DNA of 64,000 bases, from the IMG/VR virus record IMGVR_UViG_3300045988_119396; one strand, 5' to 3'. The stretch is from a virus. Position 1 is the first letter of the stretch. Every line of letters starts with the position of its first letter. Shown in pieces: positions 6,301 to 35,883 of this stretch. The translations under genes were made by a program, and so were the position numbers. The notes beneath the pieces are model-generated. The model was given only the letters and a program-made list of their open reading frames with translations, made no database searches and was not told the DNA's origin.

Positions 6301-6923
6301 TCTCCCAAAACAAGTCTACTACATGTTAAGAGTTTAGAGAATAAATGGTAGACATTTGGTATGTAAGGCAGTAGAAAAATGCTAACACACCACAGCATTT
6401 ACACTAATCAGACGTCCTTGCATACCACGCTCACAGACTTTGGCGCAACGAGGAATGTGGGAGCGGATAGCTGAGTCACAGGTGGTGTTGTGACAGAGAG
6501 CTATGCGTAATTATTTATCTTAGTTGGTAGTCATGTGGTGTATATGTGTAGCACACTCGTCCTTAACACGAGAGAAGTAGGGTTCAACTCTCTACCATGA
6601 CATAGAGGCGAAATGTCTCGAAACAAGCATATCTTGTATGGTGATATACATTGTTATGTATTGATTGGTTATTAATCAATCTCATATAAATACTCCTTTT
6701 TTTTAAATTATTTTTTTGGTTACCGCAGATGTTAAAAGGTGCATTTTACGAGTTCGACTCTCGATGTGGTAATTGGGGTAGAGCATGAATGCCCCGAAGC
6801 ACAATAACGGTAAGTGCGTAGATTTACGTATTTTGCGTGACATTAAAAAGTTAATTCATGAACAGGTTCATTACGACTTACGTGGTTGGTTCATGAATAA
6901 GATTTCCTCCTTTTAAAAAGGTA

Positions 6924-8067: not shown

Positions 8068-8157
8068 GGTAAGTTACTCAAGTTGGTGAAGAGGACAGTT
8101 TGCTAAACTGTTAGGTCTGCGATTGTAGACGCAAGGGTTCGAGTCCCTTACTTACCT
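8068..8157 (+). tRNA. tRNA-Ser (anticodon GCU), type II with long variable arm
   Basis: 7/7 acceptor pairing GGTAAGT/ACTTACC; 3-bp D-stem; anticodon stem ACAGT/ACTGT with loop TTGCTAA; T-arm AAGGG/TTCGAGT/CCCTT. Confidence 0.6.
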
Positions 8158-8177
8158 TTAACAATTAAATATTAAAG

Positions 8178-11946: not shown

Positions 11947-12504
11947 ATGGTTTACAATTCTAAACCACTTAGAACACAAGCCCAAATAGGTGATGTATTG
12001 TTCTATTTAAGGCGGACTCGTTATCCAGAACGTGATACATTCTTATTTTTGATTGGAATTAACACTGGGTTAAGATGTTCTGATATAGTAAAACTCAAAA
12101 TAGGTACTTTAAGACATTCTAAACGACCAGAAATTATAGAGAAGAAAACTGGTAAAAAGAAAACATTGTTTTTAGATAATGTGCAAGACATTGTGCGTGA
12201 TTATATTGAAGGCAAAGATGATAGTGAGTGGGCTTTTCCATCTAGCTATGATAAGAATAAACACATAACAGTGCAGAATGTATATAAACTATTCAAACGA
12301 ATTGATAATGAATTAGGTGGAATAGGATTTACTACACACTCTATGAGAAGGACGTTTGGTTTGTGGTATTATCGTAAGACTAAAAACATATATTACTTGA
12401 TGGAGTTGTTTAATCATTCTAGCCAAGCAATTACTATGAGATATATAGGTCTTACAGAAGATGAGTTAGGGGACTCTTTAGAAGGGTTCAGAATAGGGTA
12501 CTAA
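11947..12504 (+). CDS. small tyrosine recombinase (catalytic domain only, FimB/E-sized)
   Basis: GLRCSD (Arg I), HSMRRTF (His-x-x-Arg), C-terminal Tyr in RYIGL; no N-terminal core-binding domain. Confidence 0.65.
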   Translation: MVYNSKPLRTQAQIGDVLFYLRRTRYPERDTFLFLIGINTGLRCSDIVKLKIGTLRHSKRPEIIEKKTGKKKTLFLDNVQDIVRDYIEGKDDSEWAFPSSYDKNKHITVQNVYKLFKRIDNELGGIGFTTHSMRRTFGLWYYRKTKNIYYLMELFNHSSQAITMRYIGLTEDELGDSLEGFRIGY

Positions 12505-12667
12505 AATACTCCTATATAATAGGTAGAGATTTTTCAAAAATTAAGAAGGGTAGGTAATTAATATGCGTGATTTGGTTGGTTGTGTAGGTTGTTTGTTCTA
12601 TATTATTTTGGCTATTTTTAGTATTGGCTTGCTTATGTTTTCGTTCATTGAGATGAGCTTGTAGATG

Positions 12668-12797
12668 TATTATAATATATTTAACTAATGCGATAACTAT
12701 TAAGTGGTTATTTTAGGTATTAGTTTCAGAAGAATGTTAGATTGAGGTTGAAAAACTTAAAACCTTACGAGGCTATGCTATTTTGCATAGTCTTTTT
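12668..12797 (+). ncRNA. cassette U1: candidate small RNA (box GTTTCAGAAGAATGTTAG at 12723-12740)
   Basis: -10 TATTATAAT; terminator GGCTATGCTATTTTGCATAGTC+T5. Confidence 0.4.
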
Positions 12798-12800
12798 ATG

Positions 12801-12902
12801 TGGTATAATAGGGTTACCGCTATTAATGTGGTTTTTTGTTTCAGAAGAATGTAAACAATGTGGTTATACCTAGAAGGCTGCGTTTTGATACGTAGTCTTT
12901 TT
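12801..12902 (+). ncRNA. cassette U2: candidate small RNA (box at 12838-12856)
   Basis: TGGTATAAT; ~23-nt leader; terminator GGCTGCGTTTTGATACGTAGTC+T5. Confidence 0.4.
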
Positions 12903-12917
12903 ATTTTGATTGGAATG

Positions 12918-13003
12918 TGGTATAATACCAATGTACCGAAAAGGTATTATATATTATTTCAAAAGAATGTTAAATCGGGACTTCACTTCGGTGGAGTCTT
13001 TTT
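12918..13003 (+). ncRNA. cassette U3: candidate small RNA (box TTTCAAAAGAATGTTAAAT at 12957-12975)
   Basis: TGGTATAAT; terminator GGACTTCACTTCGGTGGAGTC+T5. Confidence 0.4.
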
Positions 13004-13026
13004 ATGTAGTTATGATTGTAGCAATG

Positions 13027-13127
13027 TGGTATAATATAAGTAACTAATCTGCACAGGAGGATTAGTTTCAGAAGATTGTTAAACAATGAGGTAAGACTCA
13101 AGGCTATGCTTAATGTGTAGCCTTTTT
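13027..13127 (+). ncRNA. cassette U4: candidate small RNA (box at 13065-13084)
   Basis: TGGTATAAT; leader ends AGGAGGATTA; terminator GGCTATGCTTAATGTGTAGCC+T5. Confidence 0.4.
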
Positions 13128-13150
13128 GTATGGTATTGCCTCCATATACA

Positions 13151-13252
13151 TGGTATAATATAGATACTGAAATGCCTCATAGGAGGATTAAGTTTCAGAG
13201 GAATGTTAAATTGAGTTAAAACTCGTAGTCCCACAGCAGTGTGGGGCTTTTT
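13151..13252 (+). ncRNA. cassette U5: candidate small RNA (box GTTTCAGAGGAATGTTAAAT at 13192-13211)
   Basis: TGGTATAAT; leader ends AGGAGGATTAA; terminator CCCACAGCAGTGTGGGG+T5. Confidence 0.4.
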
Positions 13253-13273
13253 ATTTACAAATAATGGTAGCGG

Positions 13274-13383
13274 TGTTATAATAAAACCATAGTAAATATA
13301 GTATAAATCCATAATCTTGTTTTGTGAGATTACTTGAGCGAGCCTTTCACTGATGTTTGGGCCATCCCCTTTCCTATTTTTTG
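13274..13383 (+). ncRNA. cassette U6 (degenerate: promoter TGTTATAAT, no box, weak terminator)
   Basis: Promoter-like and T-run only. Confidence 0.2.
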
Positions 13384-13537
13384 TTATATTTTTCTCAGCT
13401 ATTTAGTGTTATAATATAGTTGTAATGATGACAAGGAGTAACAGTTCCTTACTTTGTGGCTTGAACAGAACAACCACATGTATGACGATTTGGGCGGGAC
13501 TTAGTTCCGTCCTTTTGTTTATTTAGAGGTGATTTAA

Positions 13538-13876
13538 ATGGAATATATGAGCGAAATCAACAAAGATATTGTTAATCAAGGCAATGATTATAATGTAAAT
13601 TGGTATGTCACACGCAATAATTTTGGCAGCTTTAATGGATACGCTGAACTACCAGGTGACTGGCATGATGGTGATGAAGATGACTTGCTAGTGCATGGTG
13701 GAGTAACATTTCGTGGCAAGTTAAATGGTGTAGAAGTGATAGGATTTGACACAACAGATGAGTTAGACTATGACATGAGATGGTCTTTGAATGAGATAGT
13801 GCGTGAAACCAAAGAGAGATTAGTACGTGGGGTATACGATAGCATAACATATAGAAGAAGCCAAAAGGCTAGGTAA
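13538..13876 (+). CDS. small acidic hypothetical protein (own promoter TGTTATAAT at ~13407-13415)
   Basis: Track ORF; RBS AGAGGTGA; Asp/Glu-rich. Confidence 0.55.
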   Translation: MEYMSEINKDIVNQGNDYNVNWYVTRNNFGSFNGYAELPGDWHDGDEDDLLVHGGVTFRGKLNGVEVIGFDTTDELDYDMRWSLNEIVRETKERLVRGVYDSITYRRSQKAR

Positions 13877-14164: not shown

Positions 14165-14830
14165 TTATTTACTACTTGCTTTCGCTATTCTACCAACGAT
14201 TTCTTCGACTGGTGTGTTTTTGTTGTCAACATCTTTCATAACAGCAGTCTTTAACCTACCCAACTTCCAATGAAATCTACATAGTGATGTATATTCTTCA
14301 TCACCTATTACAACTTGTTCACCATCAGTTACCTGCTTACCATCTACTAGCCTTGCATTCATTGTGGCTTTACGTTGGCATGTTGGATTAGCACAAACTG
14401 TTTTGATTTCTTCTAGCTTATCTGCATACTTTAATAACGCTTCTGACCCCTCGAATAATTCACCACGAAAATCAGTCTTTAAGCCATAACAGATAACTGG
14501 CATATTATAATAATCTACTATTCTGCAAAGGTCATGCACGTTACTCTTTGACAAGAACTGTGCCTCATCAACTAAAACACAGCTAGGTTTATCTTTATCT
14601 TGAGCATTCTTGTATATCACATCTACTAGATTATCATCTGCATTGATAGCAATAGCGTCTTCTGATAAACCAATACGACTAGCAACCGTTCCAACACCAT
14701 CACGTGTATCTAAGGCACTTGTCATAATAATGACTTCTTTACCTTGTTCTCTATAATTATGAGCTGTTTTGAGTAATTCAATACTCTTGCCACTGTTCAT
14801 AGTTCCATATTTAAAGAATAGTTGAGCCAT
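14165..14830 (-). CDS. tdk: thymidine kinase
   Basis: P-loop YGTMNSGKS; C-terminal Zn motif CxxC..CxxH; TK1-family layout. Confidence 0.85.
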   Translation of the reverse strand: MAQLFFKYGTMNSGKSIELLKTAHNYREQGKEVIIMTSALDTRDGVGTVASRIGLSEDAIAINADDNLVDVIYKNAQDKDKPSCVLVDEAQFLSKSNVHDLCRIVDYYNMPVICYGLKTDFRGELFEGSEALLKYADKLEEIKTVCANPTCQRKATMNARLVDGKQVTDGEQVVIGDEEYTSLCRFHWKLGRLKTAVMKDVDNKNTPVEEIVGRIAKASSK

Positions 14831-23010: not shown

Positions 23011-23495
23011 TACTCTACCTTCCTTTCAACAGTTGTAATTGTGTCATTATGCCAGCTACCATGAGCCACCAATAGTATTTCCTGTATCTCAAAACCATAC
23101 TTCTTACCAATTCCACCACTATTCCAAGCACAACTAATAACATAGCCACCTTGCTTTACAATACGTGCAATCTCACGTTTTTGCTTAGTCCAATAGCTGT
23201 TTTGTGTGGTTTCCATGTTTACACTCATATCAAGTTTCCTATATGACTCACTCACTTGTCGTTGAGAATATGGCGGGTCGTATAATACTAAATCAACTGA
23301 ATTGTCTTCGATTTGTTTGAGAAAATCTAATGCGTCTAAATGATAGTCTGTATCATATTGTGGGTCTAAATCATTTGTGATAGTCGCTAATTTATTAGCG
23401 TTTGCGAAAGGGTCAACCACAAGCATATCTTCCTTTAAATACCTGTGAATTAACTCATTGATAGGTTTAATATTGAATGTATTCTTGTTAGGCAT
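23010..23495 (-). CDS. DNA methyltransferase (DPPY motif)
   Basis: LVLYDPPYSQ catalytic motif IV; VVDPFANANK weak motif I. Confidence 0.6.
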   Translation of the reverse strand: MPNKNTFNIKPINELIHRYLKEDMLVVDPFANANKLATITNDLDPQYDTDYHLDALDFLKQIEDNSVDLVLYDPPYSQRQVSESYRKLDMSVNMETTQNSYWTKQKREIARIVKQGGYVISCAWNSGGIGKKYGFEIQEILLVAHGSWHNDTITTVERKVE

Positions 23496-35500: not shown

Positions 35501-35883
35501 TGTTTTAATTCATCAAATAGAATACGAGGTTTACGATAGAAGTGTCCGTCCGTTCTATTAAAGGAGTTTGATGAAAGTTTGTTAATTTCCTTAACACCGT
35601 CATAATTTCGTGCTAAGAGAATTGTATGATAGGCTTCTTTGCCTTCCAAACTCATTGTCACATAGGCTTCCATTCCATGAATATATTTCAAACCAGCTTG
35701 TTCTGCCAGTTCCTTTCGATATATCCACCGAACTACATTCCCATGTTCAGTTGATGTTACTGCATTTAATCCATGTTCTTTAGCATAAGCAACATAATCT
35801 TTGAATTGAGTTACAACTTCAAAATAGTTACTATTACTAATATCTGTATGTTGATGTAAACTTATCCACTGCTTATCTGCCAT
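32542..35883 (-). CDS. dnaE: DNA polymerase III alpha subunit (DnaE-type, PHP domain)
   Basis: N-terminal PHP HQHTDISN..TEHGN; 1113 aa. Confidence 0.85.
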   Translation of the reverse strand: MADKQWISLHQHTDISNSNYFEVVTQFKDYVAYAKEHGLNAVTSTEHGNVVRWIYRKELAEQAGLKYIHGMEAYVTMSLEGKEAYHTILLARNYDGVKEINKLSSNSFNRTDGHFYRKPRILFDELKQTFKNGNIYITTACLAGFIYQNKFQKDDTEEIRNTKKNIVQQWLDMAKLHKDMFYFEIQPHDNKEQAELNTLAIKYARLVGCHVITSNDVHALNPKHNELRMIVKKGKRNGYDSDDEFELWVKSYDEMVQSFQKQRDDFNVDIMSDEIIAQGLKSTLDIANSVEEFELDKSHKYPKLYKDPEKEFQKRIKQGLKDRGILDKPKEERKVYLDRVKHEYEVYKHNGAIDYMLCHEDILNAAHDNDIDVGYGRGSVSGSLIAYLCHQTEMDSVKLGLNFERFMNPERVSLADVDNDSYSQDQQWLQQWMLTNDKWHAASILTTNTYGLKGAIKAIADGMDRYAGKPQYIQSIRNQIDDKGNYNNTLYEEHKELFDNAKQIVGVIDSFGRHAAGVLIDTNTIDDHVGIQTISKWDYPVTQVTMKEIDHYNWVKFDMLGLDNVGLISKACKLAGLPYLTPDSTDIVDFEDKKVWDSMRDNNIGIFQFEADRAGQILKDLFAPDTIDKIENEFDNNKRTKVRYMDLLSLANAAQRPSGASYLYNVTHGIVKDNGHPALNEFLAPTLGNLVYQEQLIQFLVQFCGYTAGAADVIRRSIGKKLKEVIDEEVPKIHTAFVKTMTEKYGDSTEHAEKIAKDFMQVFMDAANYGFSINHSMAYSYIGYISTWLRYYYPLEWGTAACEIWKDKPEKIAKVTSYLESRGINIKPARFRKSRALYYMDKETNSIYEGIEPIKRVNEKAGEQLYSLRDNQYDTFTDLLLDIYEPIKSIQEGNYAINLTELYKLSSEKVKEIDKLAKCNKNIFIKKEKCVEVNKSIMLNLISLNYFDEFGGSELLADTYEKFIKIYKPKNKTFINKQKAYLECLEFERTSNNVDFPLDYQLKQQLELKGKISYSNDKLPNTYVFVADLTKMSNRYKLNIYSLKTGKASQILVLKRNYISQKIEVGDFINIKKVVAKPKIVNVNGKWTKSEDEREFWLEAFNLINFGKKDSGM

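Follow-up and report, generated by a model that had tools for sequence, protein, structure and literature searches.

To our knowledge, RNA anti-CRISPRs directed against Cas9 were unknown until mid-2026. The present work concerns an array of five small cassettes on a 64-kb stretch of viral DNA (64,000 nucleotides (nt) of the IMG/VR record IMGVR_UViG_3300045988_119396, hereafter the window), which is set here against the closest described systems.

Viral small CRISPR/Cas-associated RNAs (scaRNAs) consist of a guide and a repeat-like element that pairs with the trans-activating CRISPR RNA (tracrRNA). In the parts of the preprint consulted, their guides are common with those of host scaRNAs, they target the cas9 promoter, they lie near genes for anti-CRISPR (Acr) or Acr-associated (Aca) proteins, and examples from Ligilactobacillus salivarius and from IMG/VR phages are named (bioRxiv 10.64898/2026.06.01.729453). 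The array resembles them in being phage-encoded and far from cas genes, and in the order of a guide followed by a repeat element that would pair with the tracrRNA. The action proposed for them, namely Cas9 sequestration and repression of the cas9 promoter through a seed of ~11 nt, is one that the third unit of the array (U3) fits closely. Compared with the viral scaRNAs as those parts present them, the array differs in having five tandem cassettes with diversified guides and with a promoter and a terminator each, a match to the cas9 promoter in one of the five guides only (U3, 11 nt followed by TGA), no guide found to be common with a host scaRNA, no recognised Acr/Aca neighbour, and a carrier that is a 127-kb myovirus-like, "megaplasmid"-related phage and not a typical prophage.

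Viral single-guide RNAs (vsgRNAs) have been shown to sequester Cas9 and to repress its promoter, according to the same parts of that preprint (Feussner et al., bioRxiv 10.64898/2026.06.01.729453), and rAcrIIA1 is a full single-guide RNA mimic (June 2026 preprint, bioRxiv 10.64898/2026.06.03.729762). Like the units of the array, these are phage small RNAs with their own promoter which copy parts of the Cas9 guide RNA, and they inhibit Cas9 by competition. They hold the repeat and the entire tracrRNA part (anti-repeat, nexus, and hairpins), whereas the present units hold the repeat part only and would need the host tracrRNA.

In other CRISPR types, solitary CRISPR-repeat mimics in viral genomes (Racrs) act as RNA anti-CRISPRs (Camara-Wilpert et al., Nature 2023, PMC10651486). 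Under their broad definition, that is, a repeat mimic directly after a promoter in a viral genome without cas genes, the array is included. The characterised Racrs counter single-crRNA effectors (types I-C, I-E, I-F, V-A, and VI-A) through binding of Cas6 or Cas7, a mechanism inapplicable to type II, where the mimic would need to pair with a second RNA, the tracrRNA, beforehand. Multiplexed phage RNAs resembling CRISPR RNAs (crRNAs), known as Cracr, occupy Cas proteins by competition and guide them to cas or toxin promoters, which are silenced as a result (bioRxiv 10.1101/2024.10.29.618823). These belong to types I and V and form co-transcribed units like those of a CRISPR array, in contrast to the type II units with a promoter and a terminator each described here.

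Hosts also use such RNAs for self-regulation within their own CRISPR loci. In the scaRNA of Francisella and the tracr-L of Streptococcus pyogenes (reportedly the subject of work by Workman et al. in 2021), a degenerate repeat and a short guide act together with the tracrRNA and turn Cas9, via partial complementarity, into a transcriptional repressor, be it of its own promoter or of others. The array differs from both in being phage-encoded and presumably hostile.

Judged by its sequence, the array is best filed with the viral scaRNAs, that is, with an already described class. It probably consists of five tandem, independently transcribed viral scaRNA-like mimics of crRNAs, which would act as type II RNA anti-CRISPRs against the II-A Cas9 of the host. 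In the parts of the above sources consulted, three features were not seen described for type II: the five-gene tandem with a promoter and a terminator per unit, the diversified guides locked in hairpins, and the 127-kb carrier phage. If the assignment is true, RNA anti-CRISPRs against Cas9 extend to a large and widespread phage of the human and animal gut that infects a probiotic species, and amplification followed by diversification can turn such genes into a tandem battery of decoys, each with its own expression. Such arrays would also overcome phage resistance that depends on Cas9 in starter or probiotic strains, and the units would offer minimal guide scaffolds for the L. salivarius Cas9.

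Layout of the Five Cassettes

The five consecutive cassettes, read from the window sequence, occupy positions 12648-13253 of the plus strand. A first-pass annotation of the window had described them as sharing one architecture of promoter, leader, box, and terminator, and this is borne out by scans for promoter motifs, boxes, and terminators. The features are as follows.

12648..12799, + strand: cassette U1; promoter TTGAGA-17-TATAAT at 12648-12676, predicted start at ~12683, box at 12723-12742, terminator at 12769-12799
12683-12722, + strand: leader of U1, 40 nt, with a 5'-terminal stem-loop (fold z = -3.6)
12723..12742, + strand: box of U1, GTTTCAGAAGAATGTTAGAT, putative mimic of the crRNA handle; predicted 24-nt duplex with the host anti-repeat, -18.8 kcal/mol
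12782..12905, + strand: cassette U2; promoter TTTGCA-16-TATAAT with TG at 12782-12809, leader at 12816-12837, box at 12838-12857, terminator at 12872-12905
12814..12837, + strand: guide of U2, TTACCGCTATTAATGTGGTTTTTT, homologous to the trailer-end spacer of two L. salivarius arrays (L068 and L069)
12838..12857, + strand: box of U2, GTTTCAGAAGAATGTAAACA, with a 1-nt deletion; predicted -15.5 kcal/mol
Within cassette U2 after the box, + strand: vestigial remainder of the repeat, CAATGTGGTTATACC
12916..13005, + strand: cassette U3; promoter TGTGGTATAAT at 12916-12926, leader at 12933-12955, box at 12956-12975, terminator at 12977-13005
12945..12955, + strand: seed of the U3 guide, TATTATATATT; the same 11 nt adjoin the -35 element (TTGAAA) in the cas9 promoter of L. 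salivarius
12956..12975, + strand: box of U3, ATTTCAAAAGAATGTTAAAT, with G1A and G7A; predicted -20.4 kcal/mol, the strongest of the five
13025..13129, + strand: cassette U4; promoter TGTGGTATAAT at 13025-13035, leader at 13042-13064, degenerate near full-length repeat at 13065-13098, terminator at 13100-13129
Within the leader at 13042-13064, + strand: predicted pairing of AACUAAUCU with GGAUUAGUU in U4 (fold z = -2.8)
13065..13084, + strand: box of U4, GTTTCAGAAGATTGTTAAAC; predicted -16.4 kcal/mol
13151..13253, + strand: cassette U5; promoter TGGTATAAT at 13151-13159, leader at 13166-13191, box at 13192-13211, terminator at 13227-13253
13192..13211, + strand: box of U5, GTTTCAGAGGAATGTTAAAT; predicted -18.7 kcal/mol
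13212-13225, + strand: small hairpin of U5 between box and terminator (U5 fold z = -2.6)

The whole 64 kb was searched for GTTTCAGAAGAATGTTAAAT with up to three mismatches. Five sites were found (12723, 12838, 12956, 13065, and 13192), all on the plus strand and with 1-3 mismatches each, and within this limit the window holds no further one (chance expectation 0.03). Thus, the conserved box of 19-20 nt announced by the first-pass annotation exists in five copies, but it is not uniform, as U3 has A at positions 1 and 7 and U2 has lost 1 nt. A repeat finder, which also recovers the box family and the paralogous terminators, gave a box-to-box spacing of 115, 118, 109, and 127 nt, as opposed to 66 nt in the host arrays. 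Together with the conservation of only the first 20 nt of the repeat, the promoter and terminator per unit and the leaders common to several phages, this agrees with the earlier statement that the unit structure is not that of a CRISPR array.

TATAAT is located upstream of every box, in promoters of the sigma-70 type. The extended form TGnTATAAT, previously assigned to each unit, is found in U2-U5 and not in U1, whose promoter lacks the TG. Seven of the nine plus-strand TGnTATAAT motifs of the window fall in the region of 11.9-13.4 kb. With the transcription start set 7 nt past the -10 element, the leaders are ~22-40 nt long, as against the 20-30 nt proposed before. Those of U4 and U5 both end in AGGAGGATTA(A), the shared ending noticed before. 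A G+C-rich hairpin with a T-run follows every box, as expected for one terminator per unit, and the region of 11-15 kb holds 12 terminator-like sites against 1.8 expected. The terminators of U1, U2, and U4 are paralogous, in line with the earlier reading, and hairpins of the AAGGCU type lie 3' of the box in the same three units. Apart from promoter, box, and terminator, the paralogs have diverged.

All five predicted transcripts begin with a stem-loop (z of -1.8 to -3.6), which fits RNAs designed to be stable. The stem of U1 and that of U4 connect the 5' end with the final bases of the guide and with nt 1-3 of the box, while the 5' CUGAAAU of the U5 leader is able to pair with nt 1-7 of the box.

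Beyond nt 20, the repeat is not conserved among the units. U3 is cut after nt 21 and the others, except U4, keep vestiges at most. U4 retains a degenerate rest of the repeat (CAATGAGG-TAAGAC compared with CAATAAGGTTAAGAC, p ~8e-4); therefore, not all units are truncated, and the view that the terminator replaces the remainder of the repeat has to be given up for U4.

The open reading frames (ORFs) of 43-77 amino acids (aa) that cover the array on both strands cross promoters and terminators, and the mini-ORFs near the boxes have no conserved frame. A coding function was therefore rejected. The search against Rfam returned sub-threshold noise only, with CRISPR-DR24 reaching 17.4 bits where the gathering score is 35 (E = 7.5).

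The Host and Its Targeting of the Phage

The window belongs to a large phage and carries tRNAs, an endolysin gene, and a terminase-like gene; the carrier genome of 127 kb is myovirus-like and "megaplasmid"-related. Spacers from II-A arrays of L. salivarius match the window at four positions.

8147-8176: protospacer, spacer match 27/30
14355-14384: protospacer, match 29/30, inside the gene for thymidine kinase and 1.1 kb away from the array
23460-23489: protospacer, spacer match 30/30
35773-35802: protospacer, spacer match 30/30

All four are followed by GGA or AGG, in accordance with the NGR-type protospacer-adjacent motif (PAM) deduced from 17 protospacers. On the basis of these matches, the host is L. 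salivarius and its Cas9 system targets the phage. Spacers of Pediococcus, Lentilactobacillus, and other Ligilactobacillus gave no significant matches to the window.

Nucleotide searches of INPHARED with the array region and 25 kb of the window returned no match, and deposited phages are only distant relatives. Relatives of 126-129 kb exist in IMG/VR. In addition, the "plasmid" pMP1046B of L. salivarius JCM1046 (NZ_CP007648.1, 129,218 bp, circular) carries a locus syntenic with the window, including a scaRNA-like unit between the recombinase and the next gene, in a stretch without a listed gene. This replicon appears phage-like, and it is possibly a phage-plasmid or a carrier state.

The Box Against the Host Repeat and tracrRNA

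The first-pass annotation had likened the box to the start of Lactobacillaceae II-A repeats, and this likeness is confirmed and sharpened. In a scan of one genome per species, II-A arrays with a 66-nt period were found in Pediococcus, Ligilactobacillus, Lentilactobacillus, Levilactobacillus, and others; the start of their repeats differs from the box sequence by 1-2 mismatches. The L. buchneri-type repeat (GTTTTAGAAGGATGTTAAATCAAT...) agrees with the box at 18/20 positions. The CRISPR loci of L. salivarius were obtained via Cas9 homologs. Their internal repeat, GTTTCAGAAGTATGTTAAATCAAT(A/T)AGGTTAAGACC, agrees with the box consensus at 19/20 positions, and their terminal repeat, GTTTCAGAAGAATGTTAAAT|TAATAGGG..., is identical to it at 20/20. 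Thus, the lack of a host with a matching type II repeat, which would have spoken against a crRNA mimic, does not apply: L. salivarius has such a repeat, in a system that targets the phage. Compared individually with the internal repeat, the boxes of U1 and U5 score 18/20, those of U3 and U4 17/20, and that of U2 16/20 (ungapped). The repeat part of viral scaRNAs is delimited by a length of at least 20 nt, an identity of >80%, and inclusion of the first nt; the consensus lies within these limits, and U3 starts with A and not with G.

Of a type II repeat, the mature crRNA keeps these first 20 nt. The host tracrRNA is located between cas9 and cas1, and its anti-repeat is predicted to form a duplex with every one of the five boxes in the register of a crRNA, that is, with a lower stem of 7 bp, a bulge, and an upper stem. 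Over 24 nt, the predicted energies range from -15.5 to -20.4 kcal/mol, compared with -18.2 for the host repeat and -8.3 +/- 2.4 for shuffled sequences, and cofolding of whole transcripts with the tracrRNA yields a gain of 12-18 kcal/mol. Position 11 is A in the phage boxes as well as in the terminal repeat, which closes a U-U mismatch of the internal repeat, and G1A and G7A of U3 each replace a G-U wobble to the tracrRNA by an A-U pair. The substitutions improving the pairing (G1A, G7A, and U11A) form a suggestive pattern, which is compatible with such pairing without amounting to proof.

The window contains no cas genes, as stated before: tblastn with the Cas9, Cas1, Cas2, and Csn2 of L. salivarius gave no match with an E-value below 0.5. 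Neither anti-repeat nor tracrRNA homology was found in it. Any action of the units would therefore have to proceed via the tracrRNA and Cas9 of the host.

This bears on the reading of the units as complete or minimal single-guide mimics of the vsgRNA/rAcrIIA1 type, in which a self-folded repeat:anti-repeat stem and a nexus-like hairpin bind apo-Cas9 independently of the host tracrRNA. Streptococcus phages do carry such chimeras, and some folds are reminiscent of them: the two box substitutions of U4 create an intramolecular upper-stem hairpin of 5 bp (AUUGU/ACAAU), the U5 leader can cover the start of its box, and AAGGCU-type hairpins come after the box in U1, U2, and U4. Yet the parts downstream of the boxes show no homology to the nexus or the 3' hairpins of the tracrRNA, the best local alignment being a T-run, and these 3' parts are wholly different between homologous units of different phages, which keep leader and box. 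The TGAG..TTRAAAC motif after the box fits better as a vestige of the 3' end of the repeat (GGTTAAGACC) and is significant for U4 only. For the same reasons, TGAG(G)TTGAAA after the boxes of U1 and U5 was rejected as the lower-stem strand of a tracrRNA. A single-guide mimic is thus highly improbable.

Beside these comparisons, an array end shared by six species of five genera (in seven loci: L006, L016, L017, L019, L032, L037, and L047) was observed. Its last spacer is CAAGTTTAACCATGAAAGTATTTCTGATGA, and the repeat is cut exactly after nt 20 and followed by the hairpin GGCCACTAGGGTATACCCTAGTGGCC. In most of these species, an ORF starting with MAKIGYAR, which we take to resemble a serine recombinase, lies just downstream. 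The common sequence suggests a II-A locus that spread horizontally and was truncated by one insertion.

Possible Targets and Apparent Origin of the Guides

The last 11 nt of the U3 guide recur in the cas9 promoter, directly beside its -35 hexamer, and are followed there by TGA, an NGR-type PAM. The match is present in all examined L. salivarius loci that include the cas9 promoter, and the 11-mer occurs only twice more in ~1.2 Mb of nonredundant DNA examined. Its chance probability is ~2e-3 by a rough estimate in which the PAM is not yet required. Based on this match, the U3 unit possibly silences cas9.

The U2 guide resembles a spacer located at the trailer end of host arrays, beside the terminal repeat (17/20, with the last 10 nt identical), while the best score of the other guides against 499 pre-repeat 20-mers is 13/20. 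The same trailer spacer shares CTATTAAGTGGTT with the U1-type leaders. Because of these two resemblances, the units appear to stem from the trailer end of a host array, and the locus bears on how phages acquire mimics from host arrays, the U2 guide being still spacer-like.

In L068 (14157-14310) and L069, the trailer itself consists, in order, of a repeat truncated at nt 20, the promoter-like element TGTTATAAT, a degenerate repeat, the U2-like spacer, and the terminal repeat. Going by these motifs, it is a putative internal promoter or scaRNA-like arrangement inside the host array.

The guides also allow the reading that the array was programmed by the phage, with each conserved leader directing the host Cas9, by repression or cleavage, to a target useful to the phage (host defence or regulatory promoters, competing phages, or prophages). 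Three leader types are conserved across unrelated phages, the seed of U3 matches the cas9 promoter beside a PAM, a genuine host spacer is the source of the U2 guide, and viral crRNA-like arrays of types I and V are reported to silence several host immune genes. However, leader targets of ~18 nt or more were absent from 50,697 phage records and 72,556 plasmids, except for the homologous unit of pMP1046B, anchored seed and PAM matches in the examined host loci are limited to U3, and the guides are locked in 5' hairpins. Guides chosen for such targets are therefore considered unlikely. A narrower form is multiplex CRISPR interference, where each guide would send Cas9 and tracrRNA to a different host promoter (U3 to that of cas9, the others to defence or physiology genes) and the 5' hairpins would shorten the effective guide, leading to repression without cleavage. 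The nuclease of the host would then serve the phage as a programmable repressor of several functions together and would not just be titrated. Its chances are judged to be similarly low.

Other matches were attributed to chance. A Clostridium plasmid matched a leader with E = 9, presumably by chance. The U1 leader shares 11 nt with the cas9 promoter, but on the opposite strand, without anchoring at the 3' end, with the last 2 nt mismatched, and without a PAM. The leader of one sister phage (L012) shares 12 nt with the beginning of cas2, which is conserved. When viral and metagenome sequences were scanned for the junction of the U3 guide and box, 25 AT-rich matches came up, all of chance type. 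Among 28 L. salivarius loci, no host repeat-like element with a promoter-matching guide was detected, and seed and PAM targets for U1, U2, U4, and U5 were not found in the window or in the other phages examined.

Predicted Action on Cas9

If the units are scaRNA-like mimics of crRNAs, their action would be as follows; its components, namely transcription, pairing in vivo, loading into Cas9, and inhibition, are what we infer from the sequence. The host RNA polymerase would transcribe the cassettes early and strongly, and each RNA would consist of a 5'-terminal stem-loop, a leader in the position of the guide, a repeat handle of 20 nt, and its own terminator. The handle would pair with the host tracrRNA anti-repeat in the way of a crRNA, and the duplex would be loaded into Cas9. 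Both tracrRNA and Cas9 would thereby be tied up with guides which are chosen by the phage and do not target it, and the phage-targeting crRNAs would be diluted. Moreover, U3 may steer Cas9 to the -35 region of the cas9 promoter through its 11-nt seed. As a match of this length is too short for cleavage, the result would be repression of the cas operon. The first-pass annotation had named sequestration of Cas9 and tracrRNA, or redirection of Cas9, as the plausible roles; by analogy, both may apply, having been demonstrated for vsgRNAs and proposed for viral scaRNAs in the parts of the preprint consulted.

Several observations weigh against this action. The substitutions at positions 12 and 20 of U4 and the deletion of U2 weaken the pairing with the tracrRNA, and across the boxes the mix of pair-keeping and pair-breaking substitutions does not stand out clearly from an expectation built on transitions only. 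In U1, U4, and U5, the stable 5' hairpins take in the 3' end of the guide and nt 1-3 or 1-7 of the box, and they could compete with tracrRNA pairing. U1, U2, U4, and U5 lack a 3'-anchored match of at least 9 nt with an NGR motif in the 16-kb host CRISPR-cas loci. The PAM was deduced from 17 protospacers, just three of which match perfectly or with one mismatch. A host scaRNA with a common guide was not found in the 28 L. salivarius loci, and no Acr or Aca was recognised among the neighbouring ORFs by Pfam, PHROGs, a PDB sequence search, or AlphaFold2 (AF2) models compared with Foldseek.

As a compact natural system, the locus lends itself to asking how much of a crRNA captures tracrRNA and Cas9, and whether decoy and promoter-silencing roles are split among paralogs.

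Gain, Loss, and Mobility of Cassettes

The number of cassettes varies by whole units and is 5, 4, or 1. Seven other contigs carry all five units; four of them are identical to the window over a region of 1,033 bp and three have one or two substitutions. A near-identical genome (L054) shows a clean deletion of 109 bp (12914-13022), by which the whole U3 cassette is gone. In three sister phages (L010, L011, and L012), a single unit is located at the same locus, with a U4-type or U1-type leader joined to the tail and terminator of U5. Hence, gain and loss of cassettes, unit by unit, are visible between natural isolates.

In L007 and L060, two unrelated phage contigs of siphovirus size and L. salivarius type, one or two homologous modules of leader and box lie just after the endolysin gene, with 3' ends and terminators unrelated to those of the array. 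L007 is itself matched by L. salivarius spacers. Leaders are conserved as three types across such unrelated phages. Since leader and box are kept while the 3' ends are not, the conserved mobile module is the promoter, the leader, and the box.

A gene for a tyrosine recombinase (185 aa, 11947-12504) lies directly upstream of the array. Together with the varying cassette number and the capture from a host array evident in the U2 guide, it raises the case of an element acting at the level of DNA, in which the boxes would serve a phage protein, for example this recombinase, as operators or as sites of recombination, or would be inert captured remnants of host CRISPR. The protein operator had been listed as an alternative by the first-pass annotation, but it is unlikely because the units of L007 and L060 follow the endolysin gene and no recombinase gene adjoins them in the flanks read. 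Furthermore, the boxes lie 28-46 nt downstream of the -10 elements, inside the predicted transcripts and without overlap. The conserved part is exactly the stretch that would pair with the tracrRNA, all that lies between promoter, box, and terminator having diverged, and the array is near-invariant in seven independent metagenome contigs (identical or at most one substitution within cassettes). A function, or inertness, of the array as DNA has accordingly very little probability, and the scaRNA-like mimics remain the preferred explanation.

At the same locus, a lone repeat resembling those of type I-E, GTGTTCCCCAATTATTTGGGGGTGACCC, is present in L012 (4268-4345, equal to 2558-2640 of L009), together with another, degenerate copy, GTGTTCCCCACAATCGTGGGGTTAAT. 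Genuine type I-E arrays with a 61-nt period (L115 and L116) are retrieved with the motif pattern of GTGTTCCCCAATTATTTGGGGGTGACCC. This repeat may represent a type I-E RNA anti-CRISPR, and its position suggests that mimics of CRISPR repeats accumulate at this locus.

Solitary copies of the same repeat family as the box were also observed in varied contexts of IMG/VR phage or prophage contigs of 36-46 kb (L001/L008/L059, L002/L005, and L003). Examples are TTGACCTTA-GTTTCAGAGGAATGTTAAATCAAT-TGACCTTAG and a near full-length repeat beside an XRE-type regulator. L001 and L002 are also matched by L. salivarius spacers.

Neighbouring Genes and Further Elements

Between the recombinase gene and U1, a hydrophobic ORF of 33 codons (MRDLVGCVGCLFYIILAIFSIGLLMFSFIEMSL, 12564-12665) is preceded by GGTAGG, which resembles a ribosome-binding site. 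This ORF is kept in the sister phages, and the -35 element of U1 lies inside its 3' end. For the gene adjoining the array, an identical protein is encoded in many gut metagenome assemblies. The downstream ORF of 112 aa gave a weak AF2 model (predicted local distance difference test of 62.6) without a structural match.

Directly after U5, the region 13254-13520 contains two more promoter/terminator cassettes without a box, in which TGTTATAAT occurs at 13274 and 13407. The terminator at 13492-13512 is directly upstream of the ORF at 13538. These cassettes showed no similarity to the tracrRNA, and parts of them are conserved in the sister phages (e.g., GTATAAATYCATAATCTTGTTTTGTGAGATTACTTGAGCGAGCCTTTCAC and TATGACGATTTGGGCGGGACTTAGTTCCGTCC). 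The two cassettes may encode additional small RNAs or serve as a leader/attenuator.

On one metagenome scaffold (L080, 1-5066), an L. salivarius-type cas9 operon is preceded by genes of phage or plasmid character (NUMOD4, ParB_N, and DUF3440), which are not its usual chromosomal neighbours; the arrangement may reflect a mobile context or a chimeric assembly. Upstream of the array in the window, ARAGORN identified at 6530-6602 and 8068-8157 a putative suppressor tRNA, whose anticodon TTA would decode the stop codon UAA, and a tRNA-Ser(GCT).

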